Below, piece after piece: positions 2,009 through 56,695 of a DNA stretch of 64,000 bases (its first letter is position 1; every line of letters begins with the position of its first letter). Made by a program: the position numbers and the translations under genes. Location of the stretch: the NCBI GenBank assembly GCA_900318535.1, contig ONKU01000019.1, positions 472-64,471 on the forward strand, in the 5' to 3' direction. Source of the stretch: an uncultured Prevotellaceae bacterium (GTDB lineage Bacteria; Bacteroidota; Bacteroidia; Bacteroidales; Muribaculaceae). The notes under the pieces are model-generated. The model had not been told where the DNA came from and ran no database searches. It was given only the letters and a program-made list of their open reading frames with translations.

Positions 2009-2043
2009 AACTAGGGACTAGGGACTAGAAACCAAAGATCAGG
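2009..2043 (+). repeat. Heptamer tandem array
   Basis: AACTAGG GACTAGG GACTAGA AACCAAA GATCAGG. Confidence 0.7.
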
Positions 2044-2046
2044 GCG

Positions 2047-2078
2047 TTTGGTTTTCTCATGAAAAAGTCGTACCTTTG
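2047..2078 (+). promoter_or_regulatory. Bacteroidetes primary sigma promoter for uvrA
   Basis: TTTG 2047-2050, 20-nt spacer, TACCTTTG 2071-2078. Confidence 0.75.
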
Positions 2079-2097
2079 CGGGCTCGAATTTTCTAGA

Positions 2098-4899
2098 ATG
2101 GCTACTGGAGGCGACATCATCATCAAGGGGGCCCGCGTCAACAACCTGAAGAATGTTGACGTGACGATACCGCGCGGCAAGTTCGTCGTGGTTACGGGCC
2201 TGTCGGGCAGCGGCAAGTCGTCGCTGGCCTTCGACACACTGTATGCCGAGGGGCAGCGCCGCTATGTCGAGAGCCTGTCGTCCTATGCGCGCCAGTTCAT
2301 GGGGCGCCTGAGCAAACCCGACTGCGACTTCATCTACGGCCTACCGCCCGCCATTGCCGTGGAGCAGCGCACCGTGACGCGCAACTCGCGCAGCACCGTG
2401 GGCACGAGCACCGAGATCTATGACTACCTGCGCCTGCTGTTCGCCCGCGTGGGCAAGACGTTCTCGCCCGTGTCGGGAAACTTGGTGAAAAAGCACACCG
2501 CCAACGACGTCATCGACACCATCAACACCTACCCCGACGGCACCCGCCTGGCGCTGTTGACCGAGGTCATCGTGCCCGAGGGGCGCGACCTGCGCACCCA
2601 ACTCGACATCCTGACCAAGGGCGGCTACTCCAGGCTGATGACCCGCGACGGCCGCTTTGTGGACATTGCCCAGGTCATGGCGACCGACGGCGAACTCGAT
2701 GCCGCCGACTACCGACTGCTCATCGACCGCCTGGCGGTGACCCACAGCCGCGACGACGAGATGCGCCTGCTGGACTCGCTGCAGACGGCTTTCTACGAGG
2801 GCAAGGACGAGTGCATCGTCGTGGTGTGGCAGCAGGACGGCTCGACGGTGGAGCACCGCTTCTCCAAACGCTTTGAGCTGGACGGGATGACGTTTGAAGA
2901 GCCCAGCGACCTGATGTTCAACTTCAACAACCCGCTGGGGGCATGCCCCACGTGCGAGGGATTCGGCAGTGTCATCGGCATCGACGAGAGCCTGGTGGTG
3001 CCCGACCGCAGCCGCTCGGTCTATGACGATGCGGTGATGTGCTGGCGCGGACAGGTCATGGGAGAGTGGAAAAAAGAGTTTATCCACATCGCCTCAAGTC
3101 ACAATTTTCCCATCCACAAGCCCTATCACGAGCTCAACCAGGAGCAGCTCGACCTGCTGTGGCACGGCTCCGATGACGGCCGCTGGCCGGGCATCGACGG
3201 CTTCTTTGAGTGGGTCAAGAGCAAGTCCTATGCCATCCAGTTCCGCGTGCTGCTGGCACGCTACCGCGGCAAGACGGTGTGCCCCGACTGCCACGGCACC
3301 CGCCTGAAGCCCCAAGCGGGCTACGTCAAGGTGGGCGGCAAGACCATCAGCGAGCTGGTGCGCATGCCCGTCAAAGAGCTGAAGCAGTGGTTCAGCGAGC
3401 TGAGCCTCGACGAGACCGACGCAACGATTGCCAAGCGGCTGTTGACCGAGATCAACACCCGCCTGGAGTACCTGTGCAACGTGGGCGTGGGCTACCTGAC
3501 GCTCGACCGCCTGTCGGCAACCCTGTCGGGCGGCGAGAGCCAGCGCATCAACCTGGCGACGGCCCTGGGCAGCTCGCTGGTCGGCTCGGTCTATATCCTG
3601 GACGAGCCCTCCATCGGCCTGCACCCGCGCGACACCCACCGGCTGATACACGTGCTGCGCATGCTGCAGCAGCTGGGCAACACGGTGGTCGTGGTCGAGC
3701 ATGACGAGGACATCATCCGCAGCGCCGACTACCTGATCGACGTCGGCCCCGAGGCCGGACGCAACGGCGGCCGCATCACCTATCAGGGCCCCGTCAGCCA
3801 GCTCGAGGGCGCGCAAGAGAGCTACACCGCCAAGTACCTCACCGGCGAACTGACCATCCCGCTGCCCAAGCATCGCCGCAAGTGGAGCCAGTATATCGAG
3901 GTCAAGGGGGCGACCCACAACAACCTCAAGAACATCGACGTGAAGTTCCCGCTGGGTGTAATGACGGTGGTCACCGGCGTGAGCGGCTCGGGAAAATCGA
4001 CCCTCGTGGGCAAAATCCTCTACCCTGCCCTGGCGCGCAATTACGACCAGACGGCCGAGGTGCCCGGCAGCCACAAGAGCATCGGCGGCGACCTGAACCG
4101 GCTGTCGGCGGTGGAATTCATCGACCAGGGTCCCATCGGCAAGAGTTCGCGCAGCAATCCGGCCACTTACCTCAAGGCCTTTGACGAGATACGCCAGCTG
4201 TTCGCCCAGCAGCAGCTGTCCAAGCAGATGGGCTACAACGGCAGCTTCTTCTCGTTCAACTCGCCGGGCGGCCGTTGCGAGGAGTGCAAGGGCGAGGGCA
4301 CCATTACCATCGAGATGCAGTTCATGGCCGACATCACCCTCACGTGTGAGGCCTGCCACGGCAAGCGCTTCTCCCGCAACGCGCTGGACATCACCTTCAG
4401 GGACAAGACCATCAGCGACATCCTGGACATGACGGTGAACCAGGCCATCGAGTTCTTCAACGAGTCGAGCACCTACAACGAGCACAAGATCGTGCGGCGC
4501 CTCAAGCCGTTGCAGGACGTGGGTCTGGGTTACATCAAGCTGGGACAGTCGTCGTCCACACTGTCGGGCGGCGAAAACCAGCGCGTGAAACTGGCCTATT
4601 ACCTGAGCGGCGAGCGACAGGGCAACACGCTGTTCATCTTTGACGAACCCACCACCGGCCTGCACCTGCACGACATCAACACGCTGATGAAATCCTTTGA
4701 CCAGCTCATCGGCAACGGCCACACGGTGGTCATCATCGAGCACAACCTGGAAGTCATCAAGTGCGCAGACCACATCATCGACCTGGGGCCCGAGGGCGGC
4801 GACCTGGGCGGCAACATCGTCGTGGCTGGCACTCCCGAGGAGGTCGCCAAGTGCAAAGAGAGCTACACGGCACAGTTCCTGGCCGAGAAACTGAAATAA
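2098..4899 (+). CDS. uvrA: Excinuclease ABC subunit A
   Basis: [12 protein letters not shown], two Walker A motifs ([18 protein letters not shown]), LSGGE signatures, Zn-finger CxxC pairs. Start moved from 2059 to ATG 2098, downstream of the promoter. Confidence 0.97.
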
Positions 4900-4938
4900 C
4901 GACCCCGTCTCACGCCAAGACACCAAATTTTGAATACA

Positions 4939-5499
4939 ATGATGGACAATAACACAGCAAGGGAAATCAGGAAAGAGTTTTTTGCTTACCGCAACGGCAT
5001 CATCGCCGACAAACTGCGCCATGCGGGCGACCCGCACTCCATGATCATGGGCTGCCTGCTGGTTGACGTGACGGCCATTGCCCAACGCACCCGCGAGGCC
5101 CTTGGGGATGACGCACAACTCCTGGCCCTGGCCCAGGAGCTGTGGGCCGACACCAACTCGCGCGAGTGCCGTCTGGCAGCGCCCATGCTCTACCCTGCCA
5201 CGCTGATGTCACTCGAGACCGCCATGCAGTGGTGCCAGAGCGTTGAGACCGTCGAAATCGCCGACAACCTGTGCCACAAACTGCTGCGCAACCTGCCTGA
5301 GGCCGATGCCCTGTTCCGCCAACTCATCGCCCAGGAACAGACCATGCTCAAATACACCGGCTACCGCCTGTTACTCAACCTGTTGCTGACGGGCAAGACG
5401 CAAGCCACACCCGCACTGAAAGCCATCGTCGAAGCCGAAGCAGCACAGGCACAACCCCCGCTCACCACGCTCCTGCGCGATGTGCTGGAAGAATTCTAA
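4939..5499 (+). CDS. DNA alkylation repair (AlkD-like HEAT repeat) family protein
   Basis: Helical protein with RNGIIA...LAQELW...RECRLAA pattern, recalled from Bacteroidales DNA alkylation repair proteins; follows uvrA. Confidence 0.6.
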   Translation: MMDNNTAREIRKEFFAYRNGIIADKLRHAGDPHSMIMGCLLVDVTAIAQRTREALGDDAQLLALAQELWADTNSRECRLAAPMLYPATLMSLETAMQWCQSVETVEIADNLCHKLLRNLPEADALFRQLIAQEQTMLKYTGYRLLLNLLLTGKTQATPALKAIVEAEAAQAQPPLTTLLRDVLEEF

Positions 5500-5515
5500 G
5501 AAAACAACTGAATGA

Positions 5516-5541
5516 GTAGAGACGAAACATCTTGCGTCTCC
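5516..5541 (+). repeat. GTAG-type REP-like palindrome
   Basis: GTAGAGACGaaacatcttgCGTCTCc between two convergent stop codons. Confidence 0.6.
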
Positions 5542-5564
5542 AGGCAGATATCATTGGGCACAAG

Positions 5565-6776
5565 TCAGCTCAACGATTCTTCACGCTTGATATTGCTGAC
5601 GAGCGTCCACGTGTAGTGCAGATAGGTCACCAGATAGATGATGGCTGCCACCACGTGGCCGTTACCCTTGTCGCCAAAGAGGTAAATGCCGTAGTAATAC
5701 AGGCTGACGAGCGTCGTGATGACGGCATACTTGATGAAACGCCTGTCCCAGCACGCCAGCAATACCAGCAAAAGGTCCAGCAAATAGGCATAGCGGTCGT
5801 GCATGCTGGGCAAGAGCAATAGCATCGTCCACATGAACCACGCTGCCACGGCATAGAAGCGCTCACGCGCCAGCAAGTCGGTTTTGTGGTTCAGGCAGTA
5901 CCACAGGCCCACAGCCAGCGCTGCCACCGTGAGCATGATGGCAAACCAGCGCATCGACCAGTAGTCATTGCCCACGAGCATCCACAGGCTGGGGAAACTC
6001 ATGTACATTTCCTGATAATGGCCCACCTGTCCCGTATAGATAAGGATGGGTGCCAACAGGCTGCGTCCATAGGCAAACGCCACGATACCCGACAGCCACA
6101 TCACCGCCACGGACAGCAAAATCCACAACAGGCTGAAACGCTTGCTCAACAGGTAATATACACCGATAATCGGCAGGATAAACACGGTCTGCAACTTGCA
6201 GGCAAACGCCAATCCCAGCATCACGAAGGCACCGACAAAGGAGTTGCGGCGCAACAGGTAGAGCGTAGCCAGGCAGCAAGTGGCATACAGCGAGTCGCAT
6301 TGGCCCCAATAGGAAGAATTGAGCATCACTGTGGGTAAGAGCCACACCGCGGCGGCCACCAGCCACGACTGGAAGCGCACACGGCGCACAGCGTCGGCAG
6401 CAGGAGCACCCGACAGGCTCTCCATGCGCACGTCACGATAGATAGCGGCAGCCACGAGCGCCAGCGGGATATCGAACAGCGACGAGAGCAGTTTGTACTG
6501 CACCACAGCCGGCAGGGGCAGATAAGTCATCAGCGAAATCAAGCTCTGGTAAAGCAGGCCATAATCGCCCACCTGACCGGCAAGTGCCGGCAGTCCGCCG
6601 GCCGCCTGGATCTTTTCGAACCACGGTATCAGGCAATAGGTCATGTCCTCGGACACGAAATAACGGCCCGCCCACCTGATGGCCACGCCAACAACAAACA
6701 GCAGCGCCAGCAGCAGCACGTGGCGGTGCCTGTCGATGGCGTCGATGCATTTATTCTCCAGTGATGTCGTTTTCAT
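5565..6776 (-). CDS. Polytopic membrane GT-C fold glycosyltransferase (mannosyltransferase-like)
   Basis: Many TM segments; DY in first loop, WGQCDS, KLQ and HDRY motifs. Start taken at MKTTS (6776). Confidence 0.65.
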   Translation of the reverse strand: MKTTSLENKCIDAIDRHRHVLLLALLFVVGVAIRWAGRYFVSEDMTYCLIPWFEKIQAAGGLPALAGQVGDYGLLYQSLISLMTYLPLPAVVQYKLLSSLFDIPLALVAAAIYRDVRMESLSGAPAADAVRRVRFQSWLVAAAVWLLPTVMLNSSYWGQCDSLYATCCLATLYLLRRNSFVGAFVMLGLAFACKLQTVFILPIIGVYYLLSKRFSLLWILLSVAVMWLSGIVAFAYGRSLLAPILIYTGQVGHYQEMYMSFPSLWMLVGNDYWSMRWFAIMLTVAALAVGLWYCLNHKTDLLARERFYAVAAWFMWTMLLLLPSMHDRYAYLLDLLLVLLACWDRRFIKYAVITTLVSLYYYGIYLFGDKGNGHVVAAIIYLVTYLHYTWTLVSNIKREESLS

Positions 6777-6870
6777 TGCGATAATCGATTGCATGACACG
6801 GGAATTGACCCCGATGCGCAAAAATAGTACAAATATTCCTTGTGGGCAAGACCACAGCGGCCTTTTTCGG

Positions 6871-8007: not shown

Positions 8008-8101
8008 TTCATGTCGCGTTATTCATGGTGCAAAATTAGTCATTTTTGGCCTTGTTGAAAATTTTCTTTTTAATAATGTTGTGATTCAGCGCAAAAATGA
8101 C

Positions 8102-8109
8102 TAATTTTG
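8102..8109 (+). promoter_or_regulatory. -7 promoter element for fusA2; divergent hemW element at 8031-8038
   Basis: TAATTTTG on + strand; CAAAATTA at 8031-8038 for the - strand. Confidence 0.6.
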
Positions 8110-8170
8110 CAGGCCGTTTAGCAAACAAAATATCAATTCACTATATAACAACCATTTAACAACAACACTA

Positions 8171-10330: not shown

Positions 10331-10356
10331 TCCCCACCTGTCTGTTACATTATTAT

Positions 10357-10389
10357 ATAATGGGCGACCCCATGGGGCCGCCCATTATT
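10357..10389 (+). terminator. Intrinsic terminator after fusA2
   Basis: ataatgggcg...cgcccattat followed by a T run. Confidence 0.8.
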
Positions 10390-18226: not shown

Positions 18227-19726
18227 ATGGGAGTTTATTACACTAAACTACGCACTTATTTTCAACGGGCAGCCGTAGCCCTTGCCACCCTGGCGATCCT
18301 GCTGTTGCCGCAGCAGCTCAAAGCGCAGGACTGGTTTGGAGACGTGGACCTGGACGGCAAAGTCAACATCGGTGATGTGACCTCGCTAATCGACCACCTG
18401 CTGGCAAATGATCCCTTCACACCGTTTAATCCTTACGAGACCCGCCTGACGGCCAAGGGATATGGTGCCGTGGGCGATGGTGTGACCGATGACACACAGG
18501 CACTGGAGAACCTGTTTGATGCGGCATACCGCATGCACAAGGCGGTATTCTTCGAGCCCGGGACCTATCTCATTCGCCGCGCGTTAACATTGCGCACCGG
18601 CATGGAGATTTATGGCGACAACGCAACCATCAAGAAGCGGGAAGCCGTCACCACGTCATTGACCCAGGCGGCATCTAAGCATCAGACCTACATCGACGTC
18701 GCCGATGCCAGTGGATTTAACGTGGGCGACATGTTTGTCATCATTGAGCCTAACTATGCCAATGAGTGCACATTCGGCATCGTCACTTCCATAGAGGGAA
18801 ACCGCATCAATTTCTCCAATGTCATCAGCGACACGCAGAACAAATTCCCCGGGTGCGTCCGCAATTACGTCTCTGGCCGACAAGTGACCACCTCATTCGC
18901 GCTGCTGCGCTCCTGGAGCCCGCGTTTTGACTGCGACGGCGTGTACATCCACGATATCATCCTGGACGGCAACCGGAATAGTTCCGAACCCAAGGTTTGG
19001 TCCAACAGCTGCATCCACCTGGACGCCTATTACCCGCCTAACGGTTACACCGGTAATACAGGAATCGAATATAGGCACATCCAGCGAAATCTCACCGTCA
19101 ACAATGTGACCATCAAGAACTCGCCACACGACGGCATTAGCGACCAGAGCATGGGCGGCCTGCACGTGAGCAACTGCACCATCGAGAATCCCGCGATGCA
19201 CGGGGTGCACATGGGCACGAGATACTCAGGTGGTGTGATTACCGACAACAAGATGACTGGTAGCGGTGCATCGGGAGCCGGTGTTTTCCTATGCCAGAAT
19301 GTCGTCAACGTGATTGTCGAGAACAACGAGATTTCGAGTTTCAATCATGGTGTCAGCGACGAGGAATTTGCTACCTGCGGCAAGTACACCATTGTCCGCA
19401 ACAACGTGTTCAAGAACATCACCAGCTATGTGTTTGACTTCCTGAAGGCCAGCGCCACCTCGCGCGGCGGCGGACACATCATTACCGACAACAGCATCGA
19501 GGGGTTGAAGGCCATGATGTTCTCAGGCAAATACCTGGACTATGTCACCATCGCCAACAACACGGTGTCCAGCGTCACTACCGCTCCCACCGCCATCGTC
19601 AGCATTACCAATAGCGACAATGTCGTCATCTCGGGCAACAATCTGCCGTCGGGTACAACGATTGCACAGCCCGTGAGGAGCACCGACACGACCAACCTGC
19701 TCGACAACGGCAATTCCTGGAATTGA
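18227..19726 (+). CDS. Secreted protein: single dockerin-like Ca-binding repeat plus Pectate_lyase_3-like right-handed beta-helix
   Basis: Signal peptide ending LKA; GDVDLDGKVNIGDVTSLIDHLL; YGAVGDGVTDDTQAL, FFEPGTY; repeated beta-helix coils; own -7 element at 18179-18186. Confidence 0.75.
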   Translation: MGVYYTKLRTYFQRAAVALATLAILLLPQQLKAQDWFGDVDLDGKVNIGDVTSLIDHLLANDPFTPFNPYETRLTAKGYGAVGDGVTDDTQALENLFDAAYRMHKAVFFEPGTYLIRRALTLRTGMEIYGDNATIKKREAVTTSLTQAASKHQTYIDVADASGFNVGDMFVIIEPNYANECTFGIVTSIEGNRINFSNVISDTQNKFPGCVRNYVSGRQVTTSFALLRSWSPRFDCDGVYIHDIILDGNRNSSEPKVWSNSCIHLDAYYPPNGYTGNTGIEYRHIQRNLTVNNVTIKNSPHDGISDQSMGGLHVSNCTIENPAMHGVHMGTRYSGGVITDNKMTGSGASGAGVFLCQNVVNVIVENNEISSFNHGVSDEEFATCGKYTIVRNNVFKNITSYVFDFLKASATSRGGGHIITDNSIEGLKAMMFSGKYLDYVTIANNTVSSVTTAPTAIVSITNSDNVVISGNNLPSGTTIAQPVRSTDTTNLLDNGNSWN

Positions 19727-19768
19727 TTTAGCTATAGCACGATAACAGCGCACAGGAACATTCCCAGC

Positions 19769-19809
19769 AGACACGGCGACGCGCCCTTCCCATCAAACGG
19801 GAGGGCGCG
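19769..19809 (+). repeat. Direct repeat copy 2
   Basis: agacacggcgacgcgcccttcccatcaaacgggagggcgcg. Confidence 0.9.
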
Positions 19810-19843
19810 CCGCTTGTTTAATCGCACAGCCAGTCGAAATCAG

Positions 19844-19969
19844 TTAACAATAATTGTTCTCGCACTCTTTACCGCAGTTACAGCACTAGTGATGCCTTTG
19901 AACGTCATGATACCGAAACGGCTGCTGCCATTGGAGGAATTGACGATATTTATCCTTGAGCCAACTCAT
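19844..19969 (-). pseudogene. 5' remnant of a second DUF3667-family gene
   Basis: Translates MSWLKDKYRQFLQWQQPFRYHDVQRHH*CCNCGKECENNYC*, paralleling the N-terminus of the adjacent gene (LKKLYRRFKAWQ...YCNNCGYEYTGNFC). Confidence 0.7.
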
Positions 19970-19988
19970 CCTATTCTCTACTTATATC

Positions 19989-21086
19989 TTAGCTAATCAT
20001 TCTCAACAAGACACCTGATCTAACTAGCTCCATAGCGATGCAGATGATGATGAACGACACGAGGAACAGCAATGGCAAAGCCATCGCACGCAGCCACCCT
20101 CGTTCACGCCACAACTTGCGGTTAATAACGTCGGCCACCGATAACATCAGACCAGAACACGAAATGCAGAACACGCTTAGCATCCTGAGAAGCCACTTCT
20201 CTTCTACAACTTTGGTCGCATATTCAGGTTTTGTAGTAACACTATACCATAAAGCAATCGCGAAGAAACACAACACGATGACCATGACCATCAACAGCAC
20301 CCGCCACACGGTGCCCCACCAGCCGTAGCCAAACACCTGCTTGTAGTTCACAGTGACAATGACAGGCATCACCAATAAGGAACTTTCTATCATTATATCC
20401 TCAAAGCCGCTACTGCCCGCTTCATAGCCCAAATCTATTCCGGCCAGCTTGACAAAAGTAGAGATGATGAACACCCACACAAAGTACTGCGTTGTCATGA
20501 ACACCTGGATAAAGAAGCCTTGAGGTACTGTGTGCCGTGGATTGCGCGGCGAGTGCCTGAACACCAGCCAGGTGGGAAGTATCAGCAACGAGAAGATAAA
20601 CAGGTACAACCACTCAATATGATTTCCGATCCATTGAGACACAAAATCAAAATAGTATTGCCATCCTGTTGACGTGATAGCCCCAGGATCATATTCAATA
20701 AGTGCCGCCCAGTATTCAGGAAAGATGGCTTTACCGACAAGAAACAGGATTACCGCCACGAGCACAAGCATCTTGACGGGCGGAAAGCTCGACTGCCATT
20801 TGCCGTTGATATAATCGCTGATGAAATAGCCCGGACGCCACATCAGCTGCCACAACGAGTAGGGCAACGAGCGGCCACCCAGGCCCCACACGTCCATCAC
20901 GCTATGGCGCACCACATTCCACGTGACGCGGCCTGCTGTGGCTCGTTGTCCGCACACGGGGCAAAAGTTCCCTGTGTATTCATATCCGCAATTGTTGCAG
21001 TACCGTGGCACATCAGCCACAGGATAATCGGCGGGATGAACTTGCCAAGCCTTGAAACGACGATATAATTTCTTGAGACTAAACAC
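19989..21086 (-). CDS. DUF3667-type zinc-ribbon membrane protein
   Basis: CNNCG...FCPVCGQ, LMWRPGYFISDYINGK, multiple TM; GTG start 21086 overlaps the upstream stop. Confidence 0.75.
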   Translation of the reverse strand: MFSLKKLYRRFKAWQVHPADYPVADVPRYCNNCGYEYTGNFCPVCGQRATAGRVTWNVVRHSVMDVWGLGGRSLPYSLWQLMWRPGYFISDYINGKWQSSFPPVKMLVLVAVILFLVGKAIFPEYWAALIEYDPGAITSTGWQYYFDFVSQWIGNHIEWLYLFIFSLLILPTWLVFRHSPRNPRHTVPQGFFIQVFMTTQYFVWVFIISTFVKLAGIDLGYEAGSSGFEDIMIESSLLVMPVIVTVNYKQVFGYGWWGTVWRVLLMVMVIVLCFFAIALWYSVTTKPEYATKVVEEKWLLRMLSVFCISCSGLMLSVADVINRKLWRERGWLRAMALPLLFLVSFIIICIAMELVRSGVLLRMIS

Positions 21087-21804: not shown

Positions 21805-22710
21805 ATGCAAGAGAAACGCATGCACATACTCGCCATCATCAACCCCGTGTCGGGGACCAGCAACAAGGACAAGATTCCTCGGCTCATCGACACGGTCGTG
21901 GAACCCGACCGCCATGAAGTGAGCATCATGGCCACCGAATACCCCGGCCATGCCCATGAAATCGCCGAACAGGCTGTCAAGGACGGCTTCGACGTGGTCG
22001 TCGCCATTGGCGGTGACGGTACCGTCAACGAGGTGGGCAGCGCCCTGTGCGGCACACCCACAGCGCTGGCCATTGTGCCGTGCGGCTCGGGCAACGGCCT
22101 GGCACGCCACCTGCGCATCTCGATGAACGCCAACCGGGCCCTGCAGGTGCTCAACAACGGCGTGGTGGGCAAGTTTGACTACTGCACCGTGAACGGCAAG
22201 CCTTTCTTCTGCACCTGCGGCATGGGATTTGACGCCACGGTGAGCTACAAGTTCTCCAACGAGGGCACCCGCGGCTTTATCACCTACATCAAGACCGCCT
22301 TGACCGAGTATATCAAGTACAAGCCTCAAGAATACATCATCGACATCGACGGCATGAGGATGAAGGAGAAAGCCTTTGTCATCGCCTGCTGCAATGCGGC
22401 ACAATACGGCAACAACGCCTATATCGCACCGCGCGCGACCATGCAGGACGGCATGCTCGACCTGACGGTGATGCACCCGTTCAACTTTGTCGAGAGCCCG
22501 CTCATCGGAGCCCGCCTGTTCCTGCGCCAGCTGGGACACGACAACCACGTGAGCATCTACCGCGGCAAGCGTGTTACCATTGAGCGCAGCCACGACGACA
22601 TCCTCCACATCGACGGAGATCCCGTTATGATGCCCGCCAGGGTCGTCATCGAGAACGTGAGACGCGGCATCAACATTCTGGTGCCGCCCACCCTGCCCGA
22701 CGACGTCTGA
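21805..22710 (+). CDS. YegS/BmrU-like diacylglycerol kinase family lipid kinase
   Basis: IINPVSG, GGDGTVNEV, GSGNGLAR, QYGNNA, HIDGD. Confidence 0.9.
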   Translation: MQEKRMHILAIINPVSGTSNKDKIPRLIDTVVEPDRHEVSIMATEYPGHAHEIAEQAVKDGFDVVVAIGGDGTVNEVGSALCGTPTALAIVPCGSGNGLARHLRISMNANRALQVLNNGVVGKFDYCTVNGKPFFCTCGMGFDATVSYKFSNEGTRGFITYIKTALTEYIKYKPQEYIIDIDGMRMKEKAFVIACCNAAQYGNNAYIAPRATMQDGMLDLTVMHPFNFVESPLIGARLFLRQLGHDNHVSIYRGKRVTIERSHDDILHIDGDPVMMPARVVIENVRRGINILVPPTLPDDV

Positions 22711-22711
22711 T

Positions 22712-22746
22712 AACCAATAGCCAAAACCTAACGACTAACAACAAGA
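22712..22746 (+). repeat. Heptamer tandem array
   Basis: AACCAAT AGCCAAA ACCTAAC GACTAAC AACAAGA. Confidence 0.55.
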
Positions 22747-25989: not shown

Positions 25990-25994
25990 GCAAC

Positions 25995-26029
25995 AACTAA
26001 AAACCAAGAACCAAGAACTAAAAACTCAA
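25995..26029 (+). repeat. Heptamer tandem array
   Basis: AACTAAA AACCAAG AACCAAG AACTAAA AACTCAA, ending 5 nt before ATG 26035. Confidence 0.75.
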
Positions 26030-26034
26030 TAATA

Positions 26035-39957: not shown

Positions 39958-41355
39958 ATGAAGAGCAAAGGCAGATACGGCCAATTTGTCAAGTGGATAT
40001 TCAGCATCATCGACTTGCTGATTGTCAACTTGGTGTTCTTCGCGTCCATGTACTGGCAGCACGACAGCCTGCCCGCCGACTCTGAGCTGTACTCGAGACC
40101 CGTGTGGCTCGTGCTCAACATGGCGATGCTCGTCGGCCTGTACTTCTACAACGACGTGCATGAGCGCCGCGTCTTCTATGCCGAGAAGGTCGTTGGCCAA
40201 GCACTCAAGCTGGTGCTCACCCATGCGGGAATCTTCGTCACGCTGATTTCCTTCCTGGGACATGCCGGCGCACAGTGGCGACGGGTGTTGTGGTTCTACA
40301 TCGTCTTTTTTGTCGTTCTGGCCGCGTGGTGGGTCATCTCACGTCAGCTGGTGAAACTGTACCGCAACAGGGGCTTCAACTTCAAGCGGGTCATCGTCAT
40401 CGGCGGCGGCACAGTGGGCGTGCGTCTCATCAACGAGATGCTGGCCGACCAGGGCTACGGTTACCACATCGTGGGCTTCTTTGACGACAACCCCAAGGCA
40501 CGCTCTGCCTCGGCGGCCTATCAGGGCTCGCTCGACGACGTGGAGCAGTTTGTCAAGACACATCAGGTGGACGAGATGTTCTGCGCCGTGCCCGACATCG
40601 AGGACAACCAGAACGTGTCGCGCATGATACGCATCGCCGACAACAACGCGGTGGACTTCTACTACGTTCCCCAATTCGGGCGCACGGTGACCCGTCAGTT
40701 CGAGTTGCAGTCGGTGGGCGATGTGCCCATTCTGGCGGTTCACCCCTACCCCTTGAAGAACCCCATCAACCGCTTTGTCAAACGCGCCTTTGACCTGCTG
40801 GCATCAACGATTGCACTCATCTTGTCGCCATTGGTTGTCATTCCTGTGGCTATCGGTATCAAGCTGTCGTCGCCAGGCCCCATATTCTTTGTGCAGAAGC
40901 GCACCGGCTACCGCGGACAGGCATTCAACTGCTACAAGTTCCGCACGATGCGCGTCAACGCCGACAGTGACACGCTGCAGGCCACCAAGGGCGACCCGCG
41001 TGTGACGCGGTTCGGCAATTTCCTGCGCCGCACCAGCATTGACGAACTGCCGCAATTTTATAATGTGTGGCGCGGCGAAATGAGCATCGTTGGTCCCCGT
41101 CCCCACATGGTGGCACAGACCGAACTCTACAGTGAGCTCATCGACAAATACATGCTGCGGCACACCATCAAGCCCGGCATCACCGGATGGGCACAGGTGC
41201 GCGGCTACCGCGGACAGACCGAGGAACTGTGGCAAATGGAAAAACGCGTCGAGTATGACGTGTGGTATGCCGAGAACTGGACTTTCTTCATGGACCTGAA
41301 AATCATCTTCCGCACCGTGTGGAACGCCCTTAAGGGCGAGGATAATGCGTATTAG
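39958..41355 (+). CDS. Undecaprenyl-phosphate glucose phosphotransferase, WcaJ-like
   Basis: N-terminal TMs, Rossmann-like domain, KRAFD, YKFRTM, DELPQF, GPRPH, KPGITGWAQV. Confidence 0.9.
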   Translation: MKSKGRYGQFVKWIFSIIDLLIVNLVFFASMYWQHDSLPADSELYSRPVWLVLNMAMLVGLYFYNDVHERRVFYAEKVVGQALKLVLTHAGIFVTLISFLGHAGAQWRRVLWFYIVFFVVLAAWWVISRQLVKLYRNRGFNFKRVIVIGGGTVGVRLINEMLADQGYGYHIVGFFDDNPKARSASAAYQGSLDDVEQFVKTHQVDEMFCAVPDIEDNQNVSRMIRIADNNAVDFYYVPQFGRTVTRQFELQSVGDVPILAVHPYPLKNPINRFVKRAFDLLASTIALILSPLVVIPVAIGIKLSSPGPIFFVQKRTGYRGQAFNCYKFRTMRVNADSDTLQATKGDPRVTRFGNFLRRTSIDELPQFYNVWRGEMSIVGPRPHMVAQTELYSELIDKYMLRHTIKPGITGWAQVRGYRGQTEELWQMEKRVEYDVWYAENWTFFMDLKIIFRTVWNALKGEDNAY

Positions 41356-41400
41356 TCTCTAGTTTTTAGTCCCTAGTTTCTAGTTTCTAGTTTTTAGGTT
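41352..41400 (-). repeat. Heptamer tandem array, 7 units, reverse orientation
   Basis: TTAGTCT CTAGTTT TTAGTCC CTAGTTT CTAGTTT CTAGTTT TTAGGTT; includes the wcaJ-like stop codon. Confidence 0.85.
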
Positions 41401-45733: not shown

Positions 45734-45782
45734 AACCAACAACTCAGGACTAGGGACCAGAATCTTAAAACCAAGAACTGAA
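45734..45782 (+). repeat. Heptamer tandem array
   Basis: AACCAAC AACTCAG GACTAGG GACCAGA ATCTTAA AACCAAG AACTGAA, ending 1 nt before ATG 45784. Confidence 0.75.
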
Positions 45783-45783
45783 T

Positions 45784-46947
45784 ATGCTGTTTTCCGACAA
45801 GATCAAACAACTGCGCCTAGAGAGCGGCAAGCTGCAAAAAGACCTCGCCAAAGCCATTGGCGTTGATGTGCCTGCCTACAGCCGATTTGAGCACGGTGAG
45901 CGTAGGCCCAAACGCGACCAGGTGCTGCGTCTGGCCCGCATCTTCAAGACCGACCCCGATGAGCTGGTTGCAGCATGGCTTGCAGATGAGGCATACTCCC
46001 ACATTGCCCAAGACAAGATGGCCACACAAGCTGCCGCTATGCTCCACGAGATGCTTGGCGGGCACTCGACCGGCAACCAGCAAGCACCCGCAACGGAGCC
46101 CGCACAACCAGCCGCAACTCCAGTGCCCATGGCAACACGCAACCTCATCAAGCGGTTAGGCCGCTCGTTGATGCCACACTATGAGCAGGGCGATGCCGCG
46201 ACCGTGATGCAGCGCATCGAGGACGAGAGTATCGACTGCATCGTCACCACCCCGCCCTACTGGCGCCGCCGCACCCAGGGCACCGAGAGCATCACCGCCA
46301 CCAGCAAGGAAGATTTCGTCAACGAGTTGTTGCAAACCATGGCCCAAGCATGGCGTGTGCTCAAGCCTCAAGGTTCGTTGTGGCTCAACATGGGTGACGA
46401 CACGACCGACGGCTTCGTACAGGGTATCCCATGGCGCGTGGTACTCCAGATGATTGACAATCAAGGATGGCAGCTGGTCAACGAAGTGGTATGGAATAAG
46501 ACCACAACCTCCCCCCAAGGCAGTCAGGACCACCTGCGCAAGGTGCACGAGTTCATGTTCCATCTGGTCAAGAGCGATGACTTCTACTACAATGACGAAG
46601 CGTTGCGGCGCACCTTCGCCTTAATCATGCGGCACGAGGGGAAAGACCGCGGCAAACCCGCCAAAGGGAAACAGCACCAAGGACTCGTGCCCAGCGATGT
46701 ATGGACAATAGGTGTGCAGCGCTCGGGTATTGCCCACTACTGTGTTGCCCCCGACACGCTTTACCGCTTGCCTCTGGTGGCCACCTGCCCGCGCGACGGC
46801 ATCGTCCTTGACCCCTACTGCGGAACCGGCACGGCTTGCAAAATCGCCTACGAAATGAACCTGCGCAGCATCGGCATTGACATCAACGCAGAATACATCA
46901 GGCAAGCCCGCGCCACCACCGAAGCCAAGCCTTTAAGCCTCTTCTGA
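45784..46947 (+). CDS. XRE-type HTH fused to a beta-class N4/N6 DNA methyltransferase
   Basis: IKQLR...QKDLAKAIG...YSRFEHGER; motif IV VTTPPY precedes motif I DPYCGTGT. Confidence 0.85.
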   Translation: MLFSDKIKQLRLESGKLQKDLAKAIGVDVPAYSRFEHGERRPKRDQVLRLARIFKTDPDELVAAWLADEAYSHIAQDKMATQAAAMLHEMLGGHSTGNQQAPATEPAQPAATPVPMATRNLIKRLGRSLMPHYEQGDAATVMQRIEDESIDCIVTTPPYWRRRTQGTESITATSKEDFVNELLQTMAQAWRVLKPQGSLWLNMGDDTTDGFVQGIPWRVVLQMIDNQGWQLVNEVVWNKTTTSPQGSQDHLRKVHEFMFHLVKSDDFYYNDEALRRTFALIMRHEGKDRGKPAKGKQHQGLVPSDVWTIGVQRSGIAHYCVAPDTLYRLPLVATCPRDGIVLDPYCGTGTACKIAYEMNLRSIGIDINAEYIRQARATTEAKPLSLF

Positions 46948-49501: not shown

Positions 49502-49557
49502 GACAATTTAACCATTATCACTTGCCTGTTTCATCCCAATCGCCTATTTTTGCGGGC

Positions 49558-50520: not shown

Positions 50521-50599
50521 TTGTTTTATGGTTTTTTAGAGCCATGGATTTGGGCAGGTGCAAAAGATATTGTAATTTTGCACGTTAAACCACTATTGA

Positions 50600-51301: not shown

Positions 51302-51306
51302 CGACT

Positions 51307-51873: not shown

Positions 51874-51876
51874 CCC

Positions 51877-52767
51877 ATGGCAACAACCAATATACTCATC
51901 ACCGGCGCTAACGGCCAACTGGGACACGAGATGCGCAATGTGCTGGCCAATGACCCGCACTTTAACGCCATCTTCACCGATGTGGCAGGCGATGACATCG
52001 TCACCCTGGACATCACCGATGAAACGGCCGTTGAGCAAGTGGTGGCAGACAACGCCATCGGCTACATCGTCAACTGTGCGGCCTATACCGCCGTTGACGC
52101 CGCCGAGGACAACGAACCGCTGGCAGCACGGCTCAACGCTGAAGCCGTGGGCATTCTGGCCCGAGTTGCCAAGCGCCACGGTGCCCGCATGGTGCACGTC
52201 TCGACCGACTACGTGTTTGACGGGCAAGGCTGCATCCCCTACACCGAGGAAATGCCCACCTGTCCCCAGTCGGCTTACGGTCGCACCAAGCTGGACGGAG
52301 AGCGGCAGTTGCTCGACGTGCTTGGAGACGATGCCGTCATCCTGCGCACGGCTTGGCTCTACTCGCCCTACGGAAAGAACTTCGTCAAGACCATGCTCAC
52401 ACTGGGCAAGGACAAGCCCGCCTTGAAGGTCGTGTTCGACCAGGTGGGCTCACCCACCTGCGCCCGTGACCTGGCACGTGCCATCGTCACCGTGATGAGC
52501 GCCCAGCAGTGGCACCCCGGCATCTACCACTACAGCAACGAGGGCGTCATCTCATGGTTTGACTTCACCAAGGCCATTCACCGCCTGGCTGGCATCACCA
52601 CCTGTGATGTGCAGCCATGCCACAGCGACGAATTCCCTGCCAAGGCCCACCGTCCCGCCTACAGCGTGCTGGACAAGACGAAATTCAAAGCCACATTCGG
52701 CGTGACCGTCCCCTACTGGCTCGACAGCCTCGAGGACACCCTGCATCAACTAACAACTAAAGACTAA
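51877..52767 (+). CDS. rfbD: dTDP-4-dehydrorhamnose reductase
   Basis: ITGANGQLG, NCAAYTAVD, STDYVFDG, YGRTK, RPAYSVLD. Confidence 0.95.
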   Translation: MATTNILITGANGQLGHEMRNVLANDPHFNAIFTDVAGDDIVTLDITDETAVEQVVADNAIGYIVNCAAYTAVDAAEDNEPLAARLNAEAVGILARVAKRHGARMVHVSTDYVFDGQGCIPYTEEMPTCPQSAYGRTKLDGERQLLDVLGDDAVILRTAWLYSPYGKNFVKTMLTLGKDKPALKVVFDQVGSPTCARDLARAIVTVMSAQQWHPGIYHYSNEGVISWFDFTKAIHRLAGITTCDVQPCHSDEFPAKAHRPAYSVLDKTKFKATFGVTVPYWLDSLEDTLHQLTTKD

Positions 52768-52789
52768 TAACTAAAAGCTAACAACTCAT
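52748..52789 (+). repeat. Heptamer tandem array overlapping the rfbD 3' end
   Basis: AACTAAC AACTAAA GACTAAT AACTAAA AGCTAAC AACTCAT, ending 1 nt before prfC ATG. Confidence 0.8.
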
Positions 52790-52790
52790 A

Positions 52791-54368
52791 ATGTCCCTGA
52801 CAACCGAAATCACCCGCCGCCGCACCTTTGCCATCATCTCTCACCCCGATGCCGGCAAGACGACGCTCACCGAGAAGCTCCTGCTCTTTGGTGGCGCTAT
52901 CCATGTGGCAGGCGCCGTGAAATCCAATAAGATCAAAAAGACCGCCACCAGCGACTGGATGGAAATCGAGAAACAACGTGGTATCTCGGTCGCCACCTCG
53001 GTCATGGGATTCAACTACGGTGACTACAAGATCAACATCCTCGACACCCCTGGCCACCAGGACTTTGCCGAGGACACCTACCGCACCCTGACGGCCGTTG
53101 ACAGCGTCATCATCGTCGTCGACGTCGCCAAGGGCGTGGAGACCCAGACCCGCAAGCTGATGGAGGTGTGCCGCATGCGCAACACCCCCGTCATCATCTT
53201 CGTCAACAAACTGGACCGCGAGGGTCGTGACCCGTTTGACATCCTCGACGAGCTGGAGCAGGAACTGAAGATCGACGTGCGCCCCTTGAGCTGGCCCATC
53301 AACATCGGTGCCCACTTCAAGGGCGTGTACAACATCTACGAGCACAACATCAGCCTGTTCAAGCCCGACAAGCAGCATGTGACCGACCGTGTCGACATCA
53401 ACGACATCAACGATCCCGCCATCGACGCTGCCGTGGGCAAGGCCGATGCCGAGAAGCTGCGTGCCGACATCGAACTCATCGACGGCGTCTATCCCGACTT
53501 CAACACCTTGGATTACCTGGATGCCAAGGTGGCTCCCGTATTCTTCGGATCGGCCCTGAACACCTTCGGCGTGAAGGAGTTGCTGGACTGCTTTGTGCGC
53601 ATCGCCCCGTCGCCCCGCCCCGTGAACGCCATCGAGCGCACGGTGGAGCCTGGCGAGGACAAGTTCACGGGCTTTGTGTTCAAGATCCATGCCAACATGG
53701 ACCCCAACCACCGCAGCTGCATCGCCTTTGTCAAGGTGTGCTCGGGCGTGTTCCAGCGCAACGGCAACTACAAGCACGTGCGCAGCGGTAAGAGCTACCG
53801 CTTCAGCGCCCCAACGGCATTCATGGCACAAAAGAAGGAAATCATCGACGAGGTTTATCCCGGCGACATCGTGGGTCTGCCCGACAACGGCATTTTCAAG
53901 ATCGGCGACACGCTGACCGAGGGCGAAGACCTCCACTTCCGCGGCTTGCCCAGCTTCTCGCCCGAGATGTTCAAGTACATCGAGAACAGCGACCCGATGA
54001 AGACCAAGCAGCTCAACAAGGGCCTGGAGCAGTTGATGGACGAGGGCGTGGCCCAGATGTTCATCAACCAGTTCAACAACCGCAAAATCATCGGCACCGT
54101 GGGACAGCTGCAGTTCGAGGTCATCCAGTACCGCCTGCTGCACGAGTATGGCGCCCAGTGCCGTTGGGAGCCTATCCACCTGTACAAGGCCTGCTGGATC
54201 GAGAGCGATGACGAAGACGCGCTGGATGCCTTCAAGAAGCGCAAACACCAATTCATGGCACTCGACATCGAGGGCCGCGACGTCTTCCTGGCCGACTCCA
54301 ACTATGTTTTGCAGATGGCTCAACAGGACTTCCCGAAAATCACCTTCCACTTCACAAGCGAATTCTAA
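52791..54368 (+). CDS. prfC: Peptide chain release factor 3
   Basis: [44 protein letters not shown]. Confidence 0.97.
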
Positions 54369-54407
54369 TATCATATAACCACATAAACACCTAACTTACA
54401 GACAGCA

Positions 54408-55871
54408 ATGGAAAGACTGAAAAGATTATACTTGCAGTACGTGGGCAGCGAGCCCACCGACATCGTGCTCATGGACAAGGCCGGTTCTAACCGCCAGTAT
54501 TATCGCCTGTCCGGCGAACGCTCCATCGTGGGCGTCATTGGCGAGTCACGCGAGGAGAATGACGCATTCATCTACATGGCGCACCACTTCCGCAAGCAGG
54601 GTCTGTCGGTGCCCGAGGTCTATGGCGTGAGCGATGACCACATGGCCTACATCCAGGAGGACTTGGGCAAGAAGCCCGAGAACATCCTGTGGAACAAGAT
54701 TCGCCGCAGTTCCATCACCCATGCCTTCACCAGCGGAGAAAAAGAGCTGCTGCGCCGCGCCATGCGCGACCTGGTGGACATCCAGTTCCGCGGAGGCCAA
54801 GACTTTGACTACAGCCACTGCTACCCCGCCAAGTGCTTTGACGAGCGCTCCATCAAGTGGGACTTGAACTACTTCAAGTACTGCTTCCTCAAGGCTACTG
54901 GCGTGGTCTTCAACGAGGACAAACTGGAGAACGATTTCGAGAAGCTGACCCAGGACCTGCTGGCCGTGCCCAGCGACACGTTCATGTACCGCGATTTCCA
55001 ATCCCGCAACGTGATGCTCGTGGGCGATGCCGACCACCCTGCCGACTGCAAACTGGCATTCATCGACTTCCAGGGCGGCCGCAAGGGCCCGTACTACTAC
55101 GATGTGGCCTCGTTTGTATGGCAGTCGCGTGCCAAGTATCCCGATGAATTGAAAAAGGACCTCGTCGAGGCCTATCTGCATAAGCTCAAGGAATACCTTC
55201 CCGACCTTGACGAGAAGGAATTCTATGACAACCTGCGGCTGTTTGTGCTCTTCCGCACGCTGCAGGTGCTGGGCGCCTACGGTTTCCGCGGCTACTTCGA
55301 GAAGAAGCCCGACTTCATGAAGAACAGCATCGTGCCCGCCGTTGCCAACCTGCGCAAACTGGTCATCGACAAGCCGTTCACCCAATATCCCTACTTGAGC
55401 CTCGTCATCGACGAGCTGGTCAACCTCAAGGACTTCGTCAGCGAGGATAAAGGCCTCACCGTCAGGGTAATGAGCTTCGCTTACAAGAAGGGTATTCCTC
55501 ACGATCCGTCAGGTAATGGCGGCGGTTTCGTGTTCGACTGCCGTGCGCTGAACAACCCGGGCAAGTACGACAAGTACAAAGCCTTCACGGGCCTGGACCA
55601 GAACGTTATCGACTTCCTGAAAAAGGAGAGTACCATTGACAAGTGGCTGGAGCACGTCTATGCCCTGGTCGACGAGTCGGTTGAGCGCTATGTGAAACGC
55701 AGCTTCACCGACCTGATGATCTGCTTCGGCTGTACGGGCGGACAGCACCGTTCGGTCTACGCTGCCGAGCACCTTGCCGAGCACATCCACCAGAAGTTCA
55801 ATGTGCGCGTTGAGCTCTCGCACCGCGAGCAGCCCGACCACGAGCGCACCCTCAATCCCACCGTGCAATGA
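54408..55871 (+). CDS. APH-like phosphotransferase (AmgK-like) fused to a RapZ C-terminal domain
   Basis: GSNRQYYR, RDFQSRNVM, IDFQGG; C-terminal SFAYKKGIP, FDCR, GCTGGQHRSV. Confidence 0.82.
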   Translation: MERLKRLYLQYVGSEPTDIVLMDKAGSNRQYYRLSGERSIVGVIGESREENDAFIYMAHHFRKQGLSVPEVYGVSDDHMAYIQEDLGKKPENILWNKIRRSSITHAFTSGEKELLRRAMRDLVDIQFRGGQDFDYSHCYPAKCFDERSIKWDLNYFKYCFLKATGVVFNEDKLENDFEKLTQDLLAVPSDTFMYRDFQSRNVMLVGDADHPADCKLAFIDFQGGRKGPYYYDVASFVWQSRAKYPDELKKDLVEAYLHKLKEYLPDLDEKEFYDNLRLFVLFRTLQVLGAYGFRGYFEKKPDFMKNSIVPAVANLRKLVIDKPFTQYPYLSLVIDELVNLKDFVSEDKGLTVRVMSFAYKKGIPHDPSGNGGGFVFDCRALNNPGKYDKYKAFTGLDQNVIDFLKKESTIDKWLEHVYALVDESVERYVKRSFTDLMICFGCTGGQHRSVYAAEHLAEHIHQKFNVRVELSHREQPDHERTLNPTVQ

Positions 55872-56623
55872 AAGCGCTGATTTTTGCCGCAGGGCTGGGA
55901 ACCCGTCTGCGCCCCCTAACCGACGACCGCCCCAAGGCGATGGTCGAAATCGCCGGCAAACCCATGCTGCAACACGTCATCGAACGCGTGGCGGCAGCCG
56001 GATTTGACGACATCACCATCAACATCCACCACTTCGGGCAGCTGATCATCGATTTCCTGGAGAAGAACGACAACTTCGGGCTGAACATCCACATCAGCGA
56101 CGAGCGCGGCCTGCTGCTCGACACGGGCGGCGGCATCCTCAAGGCACGCCAGTGGCTGGACGGCAACGAGCCGTTCCTGGTGCACAACACCGACATCATC
56201 AGCACACTGGACCTGAAGGCCTTCTACGACTACCATGTGGAGCATGACGCGCTGGCCACCATCCTGGTCAAGGAGCGCAAGACGCAACGCTACTTCCTGT
56301 TTGACGAGAACGACCGCCTGTGCGGCTGGACCAACAAGGCGACCGGCGAGTTCAAGCCTGACCCCGAAAAACTTCAGGGCCGTCAGTTGCGGGAAATGGC
56401 CTTTGGCGGCCTGCATGTGATTTCGCCGAGCATTTTCCCGCACCTCGAGCGCTATCGCCGCAACGAAGGGGAAAAATTCTCCATCACGCCGTTTTACATC
56501 AACGAGTGCAAGCACCACCTCATCCACGGCTACCACCCTGACAACGACTACCAGTGGCTCGACATCGGCAAGCCCGAGACGCTCACCCAAGCCCAGGAGT
56601 TACTCACAACGGACTCACGCTAA
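55868..56623 (+). CDS. Sugar-phosphate nucleotidyltransferase, MurU-like
   Basis: AAGLGTRLRPLT...PKAM, DTGGG, WLDIGKPE; ATGA overlap with the kinase stop. Confidence 0.82.
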   Translation: MKALIFAAGLGTRLRPLTDDRPKAMVEIAGKPMLQHVIERVAAAGFDDITINIHHFGQLIIDFLEKNDNFGLNIHISDERGLLLDTGGGILKARQWLDGNEPFLVHNTDIISTLDLKAFYDYHVEHDALATILVKERKTQRYFLFDENDRLCGWTNKATGEFKPDPEKLQGRQLREMAFGGLHVISPSIFPHLERYRRNEGEKFSITPFYINECKHHLIHGYHPDNDYQWLDIGKPETLTQAQELLTTDSR

Positions 56624-56660
56624 GGCGCCAAGTTGATTTTTAAACTTTTGGACCATTTGC

Positions 56661-56695
56661 CAATCAAAACTAAGAACTAGAAACCAAGAACTGAA
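56661..56695 (+). repeat. Heptamer tandem array
   Basis: CAATCAA AACTAAG AACTAGA AACCAAG AACTGAA, ending 3 nt before ATG 56699. Confidence 0.75.

Follow-up and report, generated by a model that had tools for sequence, protein, structure and literature searches.

A family of heptamer arrays with a YTAR core at gene junctions of a Muribaculaceae genome, and their possible origin in cassettes that carry IVP genes

We analyzed a 64,000-nt stretch of DNA, referred to here as the window, and the short tandem arrays of 7-nt units that lie at seven of its gene junctions. The window corresponds to C26:472-64471 of genome G000, a 2.92-Mb assembly of 43 contigs that is 92% complete, and its closest public loci are in rumen and gut metagenome-assembled genomes (Sodaliphilus sp., uncultured Muribaculaceae and Prevotellaceae). 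An earlier note, made from the sequence alone, had described seven arrays with a strict 7-nt phase, and a motif-chain scan recovered all seven in the positions given there (Table 1). Tandem Repeats Finder (TRF) made calls at 2010-2028, 25991-26026, 41352-41397, and 52747-52791. The remaining three (22712, 45734, and 56661) show greater degeneracy and were recovered only by chaining matches to a position weight matrix (PWM), with the 22712 array the weakest. Smaller details of that description were also borne out. Four arrays (25995, 45734, 52748, and 56661) end 1-5 nt before an ATG, and two contain the stop codon of the upstream gene, namely the TAG at 41353-41355, which ends a Bac_transf (wcaJ-like) gene, and the TAA at 52765-52767, which ends the RmlD gene (rmlD). 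The identical end common to two arrays, AACCAAGAACTGAATAT (45769-45785 and 56682-56698), is part of a shared stretch that is actually 18 nt long. No functional pattern was seen among the genes downstream of the window arrays, and Rfam gave no match at the gathering threshold in the window. The gene that follows the 45734 array (45784-46947) encodes a DNA N6/N4 methyltransferase with a fused N-terminal HTH_3 domain.

Table 1. Heptamer arrays and associated motifs in the window (positions in nt from the first letter of the window; ORF, open reading frame).
Feature	Position	Strand	Context
Junction motif GCGGATGCC	2000-2008	+	At the inner (5') end of the 2009 array
Heptamer array AACTAGG GACTAGG GACTAGA AACCAAA GATCAGG	2009-2043	+	Ends 15 nt 5' of the uvrA ATG (2059)
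Weak degenerate array	22712-22746	+	Fills the spacer between a DAGK-like gene (stop 22708-22710) and a GDE gene (ATG 22754); PWM chain only, no TRF call
Sense array	25995-26029	+	Fills the GT4-GH57 spacer; ends 5 nt 5' of an ATG (26035)
Antisense array TTAGTCT CTAGTTT TTAGTCC CTAGTTT CTAGTTT CTAGTTT TTAGGTT	41352-41400	-	YTAG on the mRNA strand; ends 7 nt 5' of the recQ ATG (41408)
Sense array	45734-45782	+	Ends 1 nt 5' of the ATG of an HTH-N6/N4 DNA methylase gene (45784)
Sense array AACTAAC AACTAAA GACTAAT AACTAAA AGCTAAC AACTCAT	52748-52789	+	Overlaps the last rmlD codons; ends 1 nt 5' of the prfC ATG (52791)
Sense array	56661-56695	+	Ends 3 nt 5' of the ATG of an FMN_bind gene (56699)
Marginal four-unit chain	58220-58247	+	Within ORF 57816-58988; lowest threshold only; probably chance

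The window arrays belong to a family that is present throughout the genome in large excess. We found 271-349 arrays genome-wide compared with 6-9 in shuffled intergenic DNA; the count of 271 was obtained by merging double calls on the CTAG palindrome from 286 raw calls, 272 of which were non-coding. Chains of four hYTARnn units numbered 285 at a spacing of 7 nt, compared with 11-32 at other spacings (5-10 nt) and 6-9 in Markov-2 shuffled intergenic DNA. TRF returned 317 period-7 rows across the genome, including 172 with at least four copies, and no more than 18 for any other period, and a lag detector found 153 period-7 segments compared with none in a Markov-3 shuffle. The arrays can be classed as long simple sequence repeats (SSRs; units of 5-11 nt), being tandem, head-to-tail, and beyond chance in both length and frequency. 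Just one array lies near a contig end, which argues that the arrays are not assembly artifacts. Repetition is most perfect in the arrays at C27:33834-33924 and C27:103604-103687. The earlier note had staked its case on periodic matches being commoner than in shuffled intergenic DNA and biased in position, and both the excess and the bias are very strong.

The unit consists of a conserved core and a variable remainder. Across 814 units, the logo reads h-Y-T-A-R-n-n, with C at.85, T at.91, A at.91, and A/G at.94 in positions 2-5, in agreement with the unit RACYARN that had been read from the window. The YTAR consensus was recovered in 141 of the 147 arrays (96%) in the TRF set, which is agnostic to the motif. 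In that set, mismatch between adjacent units at positions 1-7 was.25,.06,.08,.10,.21,.40, and.28, which makes the YTA(R) core 3-6 times less variable than the other positions. Such low mismatch between neighboring units indicates that the core is under constraint inside the arrays. The pyrimidine at position 2 and the purine at position 5 were kept in 97%-100% of units in sense and antisense arrays alike, and we rejected selection for stop codons at the mRNA level alone on this basis. YTAR provides a stop on either strand, and the 7-nt unit length shares no factor with 3; as a result, 68% of arrays have stops in all six frames, compared with 1.6% of control intergenic segments. This readily accounts for the location of arrays outside ORFs and for the fact that some of them terminate the gene upstream.

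The arrays follow a near-absolute rule of orientation relative to genes. The CTAR strand, which is A/C-rich and poor in G, points toward the adjoining gene in 120 cases and away from it in 13 (55 versus 1 at start codons and 65 versus 12 at stop codons), and the bias in strand and position that had been suggested from the window is therefore very strong genome-wide. Arrays are sense when 5' of start codons and antisense when 3' of stop codons. Those in the opposite orientation, directly 3' of stop codons, make up about 40% of the total and were overlooked in the earlier note. Where two arrays share a spacer, the order was '-+' in 36 cases and never '+-'. Among arrays that fill an entire tandem (intercistronic) spacer, 37 were sense and 11 antisense, and ends falling within -3 to +10 nt of a start were found for 81 of 147 sense arrays compared with 11 of 119 antisense arrays. 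Arrays occurred in 18% of co-directional spacers (20-150 nt), 8% of convergent spacers, and 5% of divergent spacers. The T-richness of arrays after stop codons is not explained by general base composition, a possibility that we rejected because sequence in that position outside arrays is instead A-rich (A.336, T.262).

Heptamer arrays also form the inverted arms of two small loci that carry IVP genes (23S_rRNA_IVP, PF05635). The genome has two strong PF05635 genes, C42:161381-161698 and C35:19719-20033, and each lies between a '-' arm and then a '+' arm of complementary heptamers. The C42 cassette (161274-161776) runs TAGTTTCTAGTCCCTAGTCCCTAGTTTCTAGTT-GGCATCCGC ... IVP ... AACTAGAAACTAGGGACTAGAAACTAGGG, with GCGGATGCC as the inner boundary of its left arm, and the C35 cassette (19650-20091) runs GATTAGTGATTAATGGTTAGTGATTAGTGA ... 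IVP ... TCACTAATCTCTAATCACTAATCA. The arms point away from the IVP genes, toward ordinary genes. These loci are the sole '-...+' pairs 390-442 nt apart without an ordinary gene inside, and similar bracketing of ordinary single genes was seen for about 5 of about 2200. Both IVP genes resemble the intervening sequences (IVSs) of rRNA genes in combining a PF05635/TIGR02436 ORF, flanking inverted repeats, and a long predicted stem. The C42 protein scored 133 bits against TIGR02436 ('four helix bundle protein') and 41 bits against the model for Avd of diversity-generating retroelements (DGRs), below the cut-off of 80; the query sequence was approximate, perhaps one residue off. IVP is distantly like DGR Avd, a partner of reverse transcriptase (PMC10053308).

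The association between arms and IVP genes extends to other species of the genus. In array-rich congeners, 11 of 12 sampled IVP genes had both arms and the remaining one had a single arm. In array-poor congeners, inverted 7- or 8-nt arms of other sequence were found at 5-6 of 8 IVP genes. When arm family was mapped onto the IVP protein tree, six changes were required, which is the minimum; shuffled assignments required 13.3 on average, and none of 200 shuffles gave a value as low. Support for the clades of this tree was 96/97 (F1), 85/89 (F4), and 88/94 (F2), and several IVP lineages coexist within single genomes; in G000, the C42 protein belongs to the F1 lineage and the C35 protein to F4. 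We interpret the agreement of arm family with IVP phylogeny as support for an IVS-like cassette origin. A further IVP lineage (G004:C129:4170-5090, locus L129; G058:C158:3880-4795, locus L134), with tree support of 100/99, has the arms ACGAAAA ... TTTCGTT; its A-rich strand points inward, a geometry opposite to that of all YTAR-armed cassettes.

Arrays were stable within the species and variable between species of the genus. In seven conspecific metagenome contigs (99.6%-100% identity), arrays were identical, with the 52748 array covered in three and the 56661 array in four. We therefore rejected phase-variable contingency loci, a conclusion that concerns these two arrays and assemblies that are consensus sequences; a first pattern scan of metagenomes for strain-level variation gave no result. 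Between species of the genus (80%-87% nucleotide identity), each of four junctions had a different filling. The 41352 junction had five fillings in five related species. Three were arm pairs, one of them with a central GGCATCCGC, and a fourth contained GGCATCCGC with unclear arms. The GT4-GH57 junction (25990-26034 in the window) was found in four states across more than 25 lineages, namely 7-mer arrays, 9-mer TCTAGA arrays, another 30-nt module, or plain A-rich DNA. At this junction, L100 and L112 differ by 7 nt, exactly one unit. The 9-mer TCTAGA arrays (2-7 units with a shared tail) replace heptamers at L005, L007, L009, L016, L102-L104, L107, and L110. They share the CTAG core but differ in period, so stops in all three frames are not universal. 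The earlier note had argued that strict phase under sequence drift speaks against slippage; this argument was not supported, since substitutions keep phase and whole-unit differences between lineages exist.

The distribution of arrays was also uneven at wider taxonomic scales. Five-unit CTAR chains were present in 59 of 81 genomes of the genus, with at least 30 chains in 33 genomes (maximum 469) and none in 22, and the variable triplets of the units were species-specific. Across the phylum, 113 of 401 genomes had at least one chain, and many chains were found in few genomes.

Start codons preceded by sense arrays had initiation regions with little predicted structure, with a median minimum free energy of -2.0 kcal/mol compared with -4.7 kcal/mol otherwise (p = 5e-20). 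Initiation in Bacteroidia is independent of Shine-Dalgarno (SD) sites and is tuned by features such as a lack of leader structure (PMC6847099). A role for sense arrays as unstructured leaders suiting SD-independent initiation fits these observations, which do not prove it. A pure translation-enhancer function would account neither for the arrays after stop codons nor for the equal conservation of the core in both orientations. The position of the last core relative to the ATG varies from -4 to -21, without a fixed register, and we rejected a positioned ribosome-binding signal for this reason. We also rejected a promoter element, as the Bacteroidia -7 box (TAnnTTTG) is about as frequent after arrays (5.9%) as in the background (5.8%). 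Twelve arrays end 1-9 nt before TAnnTTTG (e.g., C29:74980, C42:159043, and C42:96953), occupying the place of the -33 region. In leaders without arrays, CTAR was enriched about 2.5-fold at -19 to -16 before starts, and CTAAC, AACTA, and ACTAA were enriched about 3-fold in the last 28 nt.

We interpret the arrays as one (hYTARnn)n family whose dispersed copies derive from IVS-like IVP cassettes, with the outward arm kept as a leader, a reading whose chances we judge to be about even. Arrays in G000 occur as two IVP-containing arm pairs, 36 ORF-less arm pairs, and about 180 solitary arrays, which share one geometry. Under this model, small IVS-like cassettes, each carrying a gene for an IVP four-helix bundle, would have the repeats as their terminal inverted arms, and the dispersed arrays would descend from such cassettes as ORF-less derivatives, half-remnants, or offshoots of slippage. 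The fixed geometry of the cassette, with the G-poor CTAR strand outward, would produce the polarity rule. Transcribed arm pairs may fold into stems of at least 28 bp that RNase III could cleave, by analogy with rRNA IVS stems. The outward A/C-rich arm may persist before starts as an AUG-free, stop-saturated, and unstructured leader suiting SD-independent initiation. Three window arrays have features that fit this derivation. The 2009 array carries the inner junction motif of the C42 cassette, the 41352 array corresponds to a left arm with its right partner present in relatives, and the 56661 array corresponds to a right arm with its left partner present in G013.

Several observations weigh against a cassette origin. 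None of the seven window arrays is paired and none encloses an ORF. Across G000, an IVP gene is present in just 2 of about 220 array-bearing spacers, and no IVP gene was present at any of the orthologous junctions examined, which numbered more than 25. The motif GCGGATGCC lies within 20 nt of the 5' end, in a single orientation, in 25 of 271 arrays, or just 9%. Arms of ORF-less pairs were about as complementary within a spacer as elsewhere (median.667 versus.643, p =.15), which indicates that most pairs are not simple copies of one cassette, and arm pairs as simple terminal inverted repeats of a single element were rejected on this ground. A movement mechanism, target duplication, or enzyme for the arrays was not found. 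Inheritance of orthologous loci along with their arms could account for part of the match between arm family and IVP tree. Across 81 genomes of the genus, array and IVP counts were correlated (Spearman 0.53) and 13 of 15 genomes lacking IVP genes also lacked arrays, but this is weak evidence because related genomes are not independent; both common descent and genome size confound the relationship, and YTAR arrays are few in several genomes that carry 3-7 IVP genes.

The most serious competing explanation, which we nonetheless consider unlikely, is that the arrays are ordinary long SSRs made in place by replication slippage, with no causal tie to IVP, that IVP genes happen to lie in spacers which have gained arrays as many other spacers have, and that host selection for A-rich leaders and ORF-bounding stops shapes their orientation and core. 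Among long SSRs of prokaryotes, heptamers make up the most frequent class, for which slippage has been suggested (Mrazek 2007, as relayed in PMC4679880). Whole-unit differences between lineages, the predominance of solitary arrays in unique sequence, the enrichment of CTAAC, AACTA, and ACTAA in array-less leaders, and the higher frequency of arrays in co-directional than in divergent spacers are all consistent with this explanation. However, it leaves two facts unexplained, namely that arms point away from IVP genes yet toward all other genes and that arm family agrees perfectly with IVP phylogeny. The T-rich arrays after stops are likewise unexplained, since non-array DNA there is A-rich, and selection at the mRNA level would not by itself require the position 2 pyrimidine and position 5 purine to be kept to the same degree in both orientations.

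Arrays could instead serve as multi-site binding platforms. The bound factor would be either a host protein with affinity for single-stranded RNA or DNA (ribosomal protein S1 or a cold-shock protein, for example) or a DNA-binding protein recognizing YTAR, and the arrays would form a post-transcriptional or nucleoid-level regulatory network. We regard this as improbable. The conservation of a 4-nt core with three free positions per unit and the placement directly before start codons would fit such a role, and a 7-nt period suits single-strand binders of the OB-fold type, as proposed for other heptamers (PMC4679880). In contrast, the absence of a fixed register to the ATG does not fit, and the variable triplets, and even the period (7 versus 9 nt), differ between close species at one junction. 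A conserved host regulator would also have to be dispensable, given the many congeners without arrays, and the genes downstream of the window arrays share no functional pattern.

It is still less probable, in our estimation, that the arrays are neutral slippage products tolerated only outside ORFs, with the patterns of position and strand as by-products. Stops in six frames do mean that most arrays cannot persist in genes, and neutrality agrees with the rapid turnover between species and with the absence of arrays from many congeners. However, exclusion from ORFs predicts no bias in orientation, contrary to the 120 versus 13 observed, and under neutral drift the seven positions should decay alike, which they do not. 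The identity of arrays across conspecific contigs also counts against this view.

The mechanism proposed in the earlier note, footprints of a mobile unit or of a template-adding process, stood in part. The same repeats do form the inverted arms of IVP cassettes and arm family does track IVP phylogeny, which lends the idea of a mobile-unit footprint indirect support, but no transposase was linked to the arrays, and template addition has no support, as RVT_1 was not found in the 92% complete genome. IS5-type elements target YTAR and duplicate 4 bp. Footprints of transposon insertion or excision at YTAR (an IS5-like 4-bp duplication plus 3 nt), or telomerase-like or reverse-transcriptase template addition, are very improbable and weakly refuted: the core matches the IS5-type target, the units divide into 4 + 3 nt in 7-mers and 6 + 3 nt in 9-mers, and IVP has its distant likeness to Avd, but the single DDE transposase of the genome is IS4-like with unrelated inverted ends of its own, the two Y1 transposases have other flanking hairpins and a copy number that does not track arrays in the genus, RVT_1 was not found, and the Avd score is below the cut-off.

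The class of repeat described here is already known, given the polarity rule and the start-codon bias reported for other heptamers in 2015. Rehm et al. (PMC4692102) described G-rich heptamers, GGGAATC in Xanthomonas campestris and X. axonopodis and GGGGA(C/T)T in Nostoc PCC 7120, whose G-rich strand coincides with the coding strand when the array overlaps or directly follows a stop codon and with the non-coding strand when it directly precedes a start codon, and no link to mobile elements was reported. Like those repeats, the YTAR family is present as hundreds of heptamer arrays in intergenic DNA, favors lengths of about four units, includes many inverted pairs, is rare in divergent spacers, obeys an identical polarity rule, and is stable in position within the species. 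Unlike them, the units here are AT-rich, are built on a YTAR core with stops on both strands, and occur in Bacteroidota. They also lack G-quadruplex potential, with no G-run in the logo and G at 0.05 or less in positions 2-4.

MacGregor (2015; PMC4679880) described direct repeats of TAACTGA in marine Beggiatoaceae, some cyanobacteria, and five Bacteroidetes. Of 170 sets, 147 are oriented toward a start codon, with many ending 1 nt before it and some overlapping the upstream stop, and sets in reverse orientation lie just after stop codons; a translational role via S1, Csp, or CsrA was proposed. The YTAR arrays are similar in being stop-containing heptamers that lie in forward orientation just upstream of starts, with some overlap of stops. 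They differ in being a degenerate family in which only a 4-nt core is fixed, whereas TAACTGA is one fixed unit with no stop on the reverse strand. IVP is mentioned in neither of these two papers, and our literature search found no paper joining heptamer repeats with IVP genes. Both X. campestris and Nostoc PCC 7120 nevertheless have genes of the IVP family. The class and its polarity are therefore not new; the genome holds a new AT-rich variant with a YTAR core in Muribaculaceae, and the link to IVP genes is the new point. In G000, TAACTGA occurs as 135 single copies and in no tandem sets of two or more copies.

Heptamers of the short tandemly repeated repetitive (STRR) type were reportedly described by Mazel et al. 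in 1990 from heterocystous cyanobacteria. STRRs are lineage-specific tandem intergenic heptamers, with units such as CCCCAGT, TTGGTCA, and CAACAGT. The resemblance to STRRs suggested in the earlier note applies in kind, as both are lineage-specific families of intergenic heptamers, but not in sequence: these STRR units form no tandem sets in the genome, the unit sequences are unrelated, and the phylum is different.

Two further systems resemble the YTAR family in organization. The 23S rRNA IVS of Coxiella burnetii has a 28-bp stem of terminal inverted repeats, is excised by RNase III, and has an S23p ORF inside (PMC4990558). Like rRNA IVSs, which are regarded as selfish, the cassettes have a small IVP-family ORF within terminal inverted repeats and a stem of about 28 bp; unlike them, they lie between protein-coding genes, have arms of tandem heptamers, and are accompanied by hundreds of dispersed, ORF-less arms. 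Repetitive extragenic palindromic (REP) sequences and bacterial interspersed mosaic elements (BIMEs) of Enterobacteria and Pseudomonas likewise consist of short repeats outside genes, often arranged as inverted pairs, that lie at gene ends or in intercistronic positions and form mosaics with other motifs, which here are GGCATCCGC, CGCTAAGN 8-mers, and ACGAATTNA 9-mers. REPs are imperfect palindromes associated with REP-associated tyrosine transposases (RAYTs), whereas the arrays here are 7-nt periodic and neither flank nor track the two RAYT-like genes.

A broader proposal is that STRR, GGGAATC, TAACTGA, and YTAR arrays share one origin as the arms of a widespread and so far undescribed class of selfish IVS-like cassettes. 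An Avd-like IVP would recognize its own arm and aid the spread or persistence of that arm, and the host would have domesticated the outward A/C-rich arm as an SD-independent, stop-insulated leader and the arm pairs as RNase III sites in operons. We consider this proposal possible but doubtful.

Heptamer repeat families have been known since 1990, when STRRs were described, and were reported anew in 2015 from Xanthomonas, Nostoc, and Beggiatoaceae. The genome analyzed here provides a clean and very dense case in a gut and rumen lineage of Bacteroidales, with three measurable features: a constrained, strand-symmetric YTAR core, a near-absolute rule that the G-poor strand points toward the gene, and perfect agreement between arm family and IVP phylogeny. 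The last of these makes the heptamer question an experimental one, namely whether IVP binds or processes its cognate arm. Such a role, if true, would be the first function for the 'four helix bundle protein' family, which is very common. In this genome, about 90 genes have array leaders, and the arrays may bear on SD-independent translation start in Bacteroidia. They could also serve as portable leaders or insulators in Bacteroides engineering.

Other short-period modules occur in the same spacers as the heptamers. Beside GGCATCCGC we found 8-mers CGCTAAGN/CGCGAAGN, 9-mers ACGAATTNA (AAACTACGAATTACGCGAATTAAACTAAT), and 9-mers ACAAATACA; these are present at 1845-1867 and 56606-56632 of the window, at C9:19812-19990 of G000, and in many other spacers, and together with the heptamers they make up a BIME-like mosaic. 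At the GT4-GH57 junction of metagenome locus L108, an ACGAATT module takes the place of the array. Exact copies of GGCATCCGC numbered 148 compared with about 26 expected, and 64 of them were intergenic. Hairpins of the form GGCATCCGC-N14-20-GCGGATGCC (stem 9-14 bp) occur at C9:19893-19925, C39:466-500, and C13:62165-62200, with arrays or other modules on either side.

Two genes for RAYT/IS200-like Y1 transposases were found at C27:10291-10716 and C18:63808-64257 (141 and 149 aa). Both are flanked by GC-rich hairpins, GGGTCGNAGACCC-like and GAGACGCAAAATCTTGCGTCTC, and the GAGACGCAAAATCTTGCGTCTC hairpin recurs in other spacers and in relatives. A RAYT/REP origin of the arrays was rejected, because the hairpins flanking both Y1_Tnp genes are not heptameric and no clean association was seen across the 81 genomes. 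An origin as IS5-type target-site footprints was rejected because the sole DDE transposase is IS4-like with unrelated inverted ends, and reverse-transcriptase or template addition was rejected because RVT_1 was not found.

Some 4-nt palindromes were unevenly represented in G000. CTAG is strongly avoided in coding DNA (observed/expected 0.24), and the arrays, which make up 0.35% of the DNA, hold 13% of CTAG sites. GATC is under-represented in both coding DNA (0.50) and intergenic DNA (0.41), which suggests a GATC-directed restriction or repair system.

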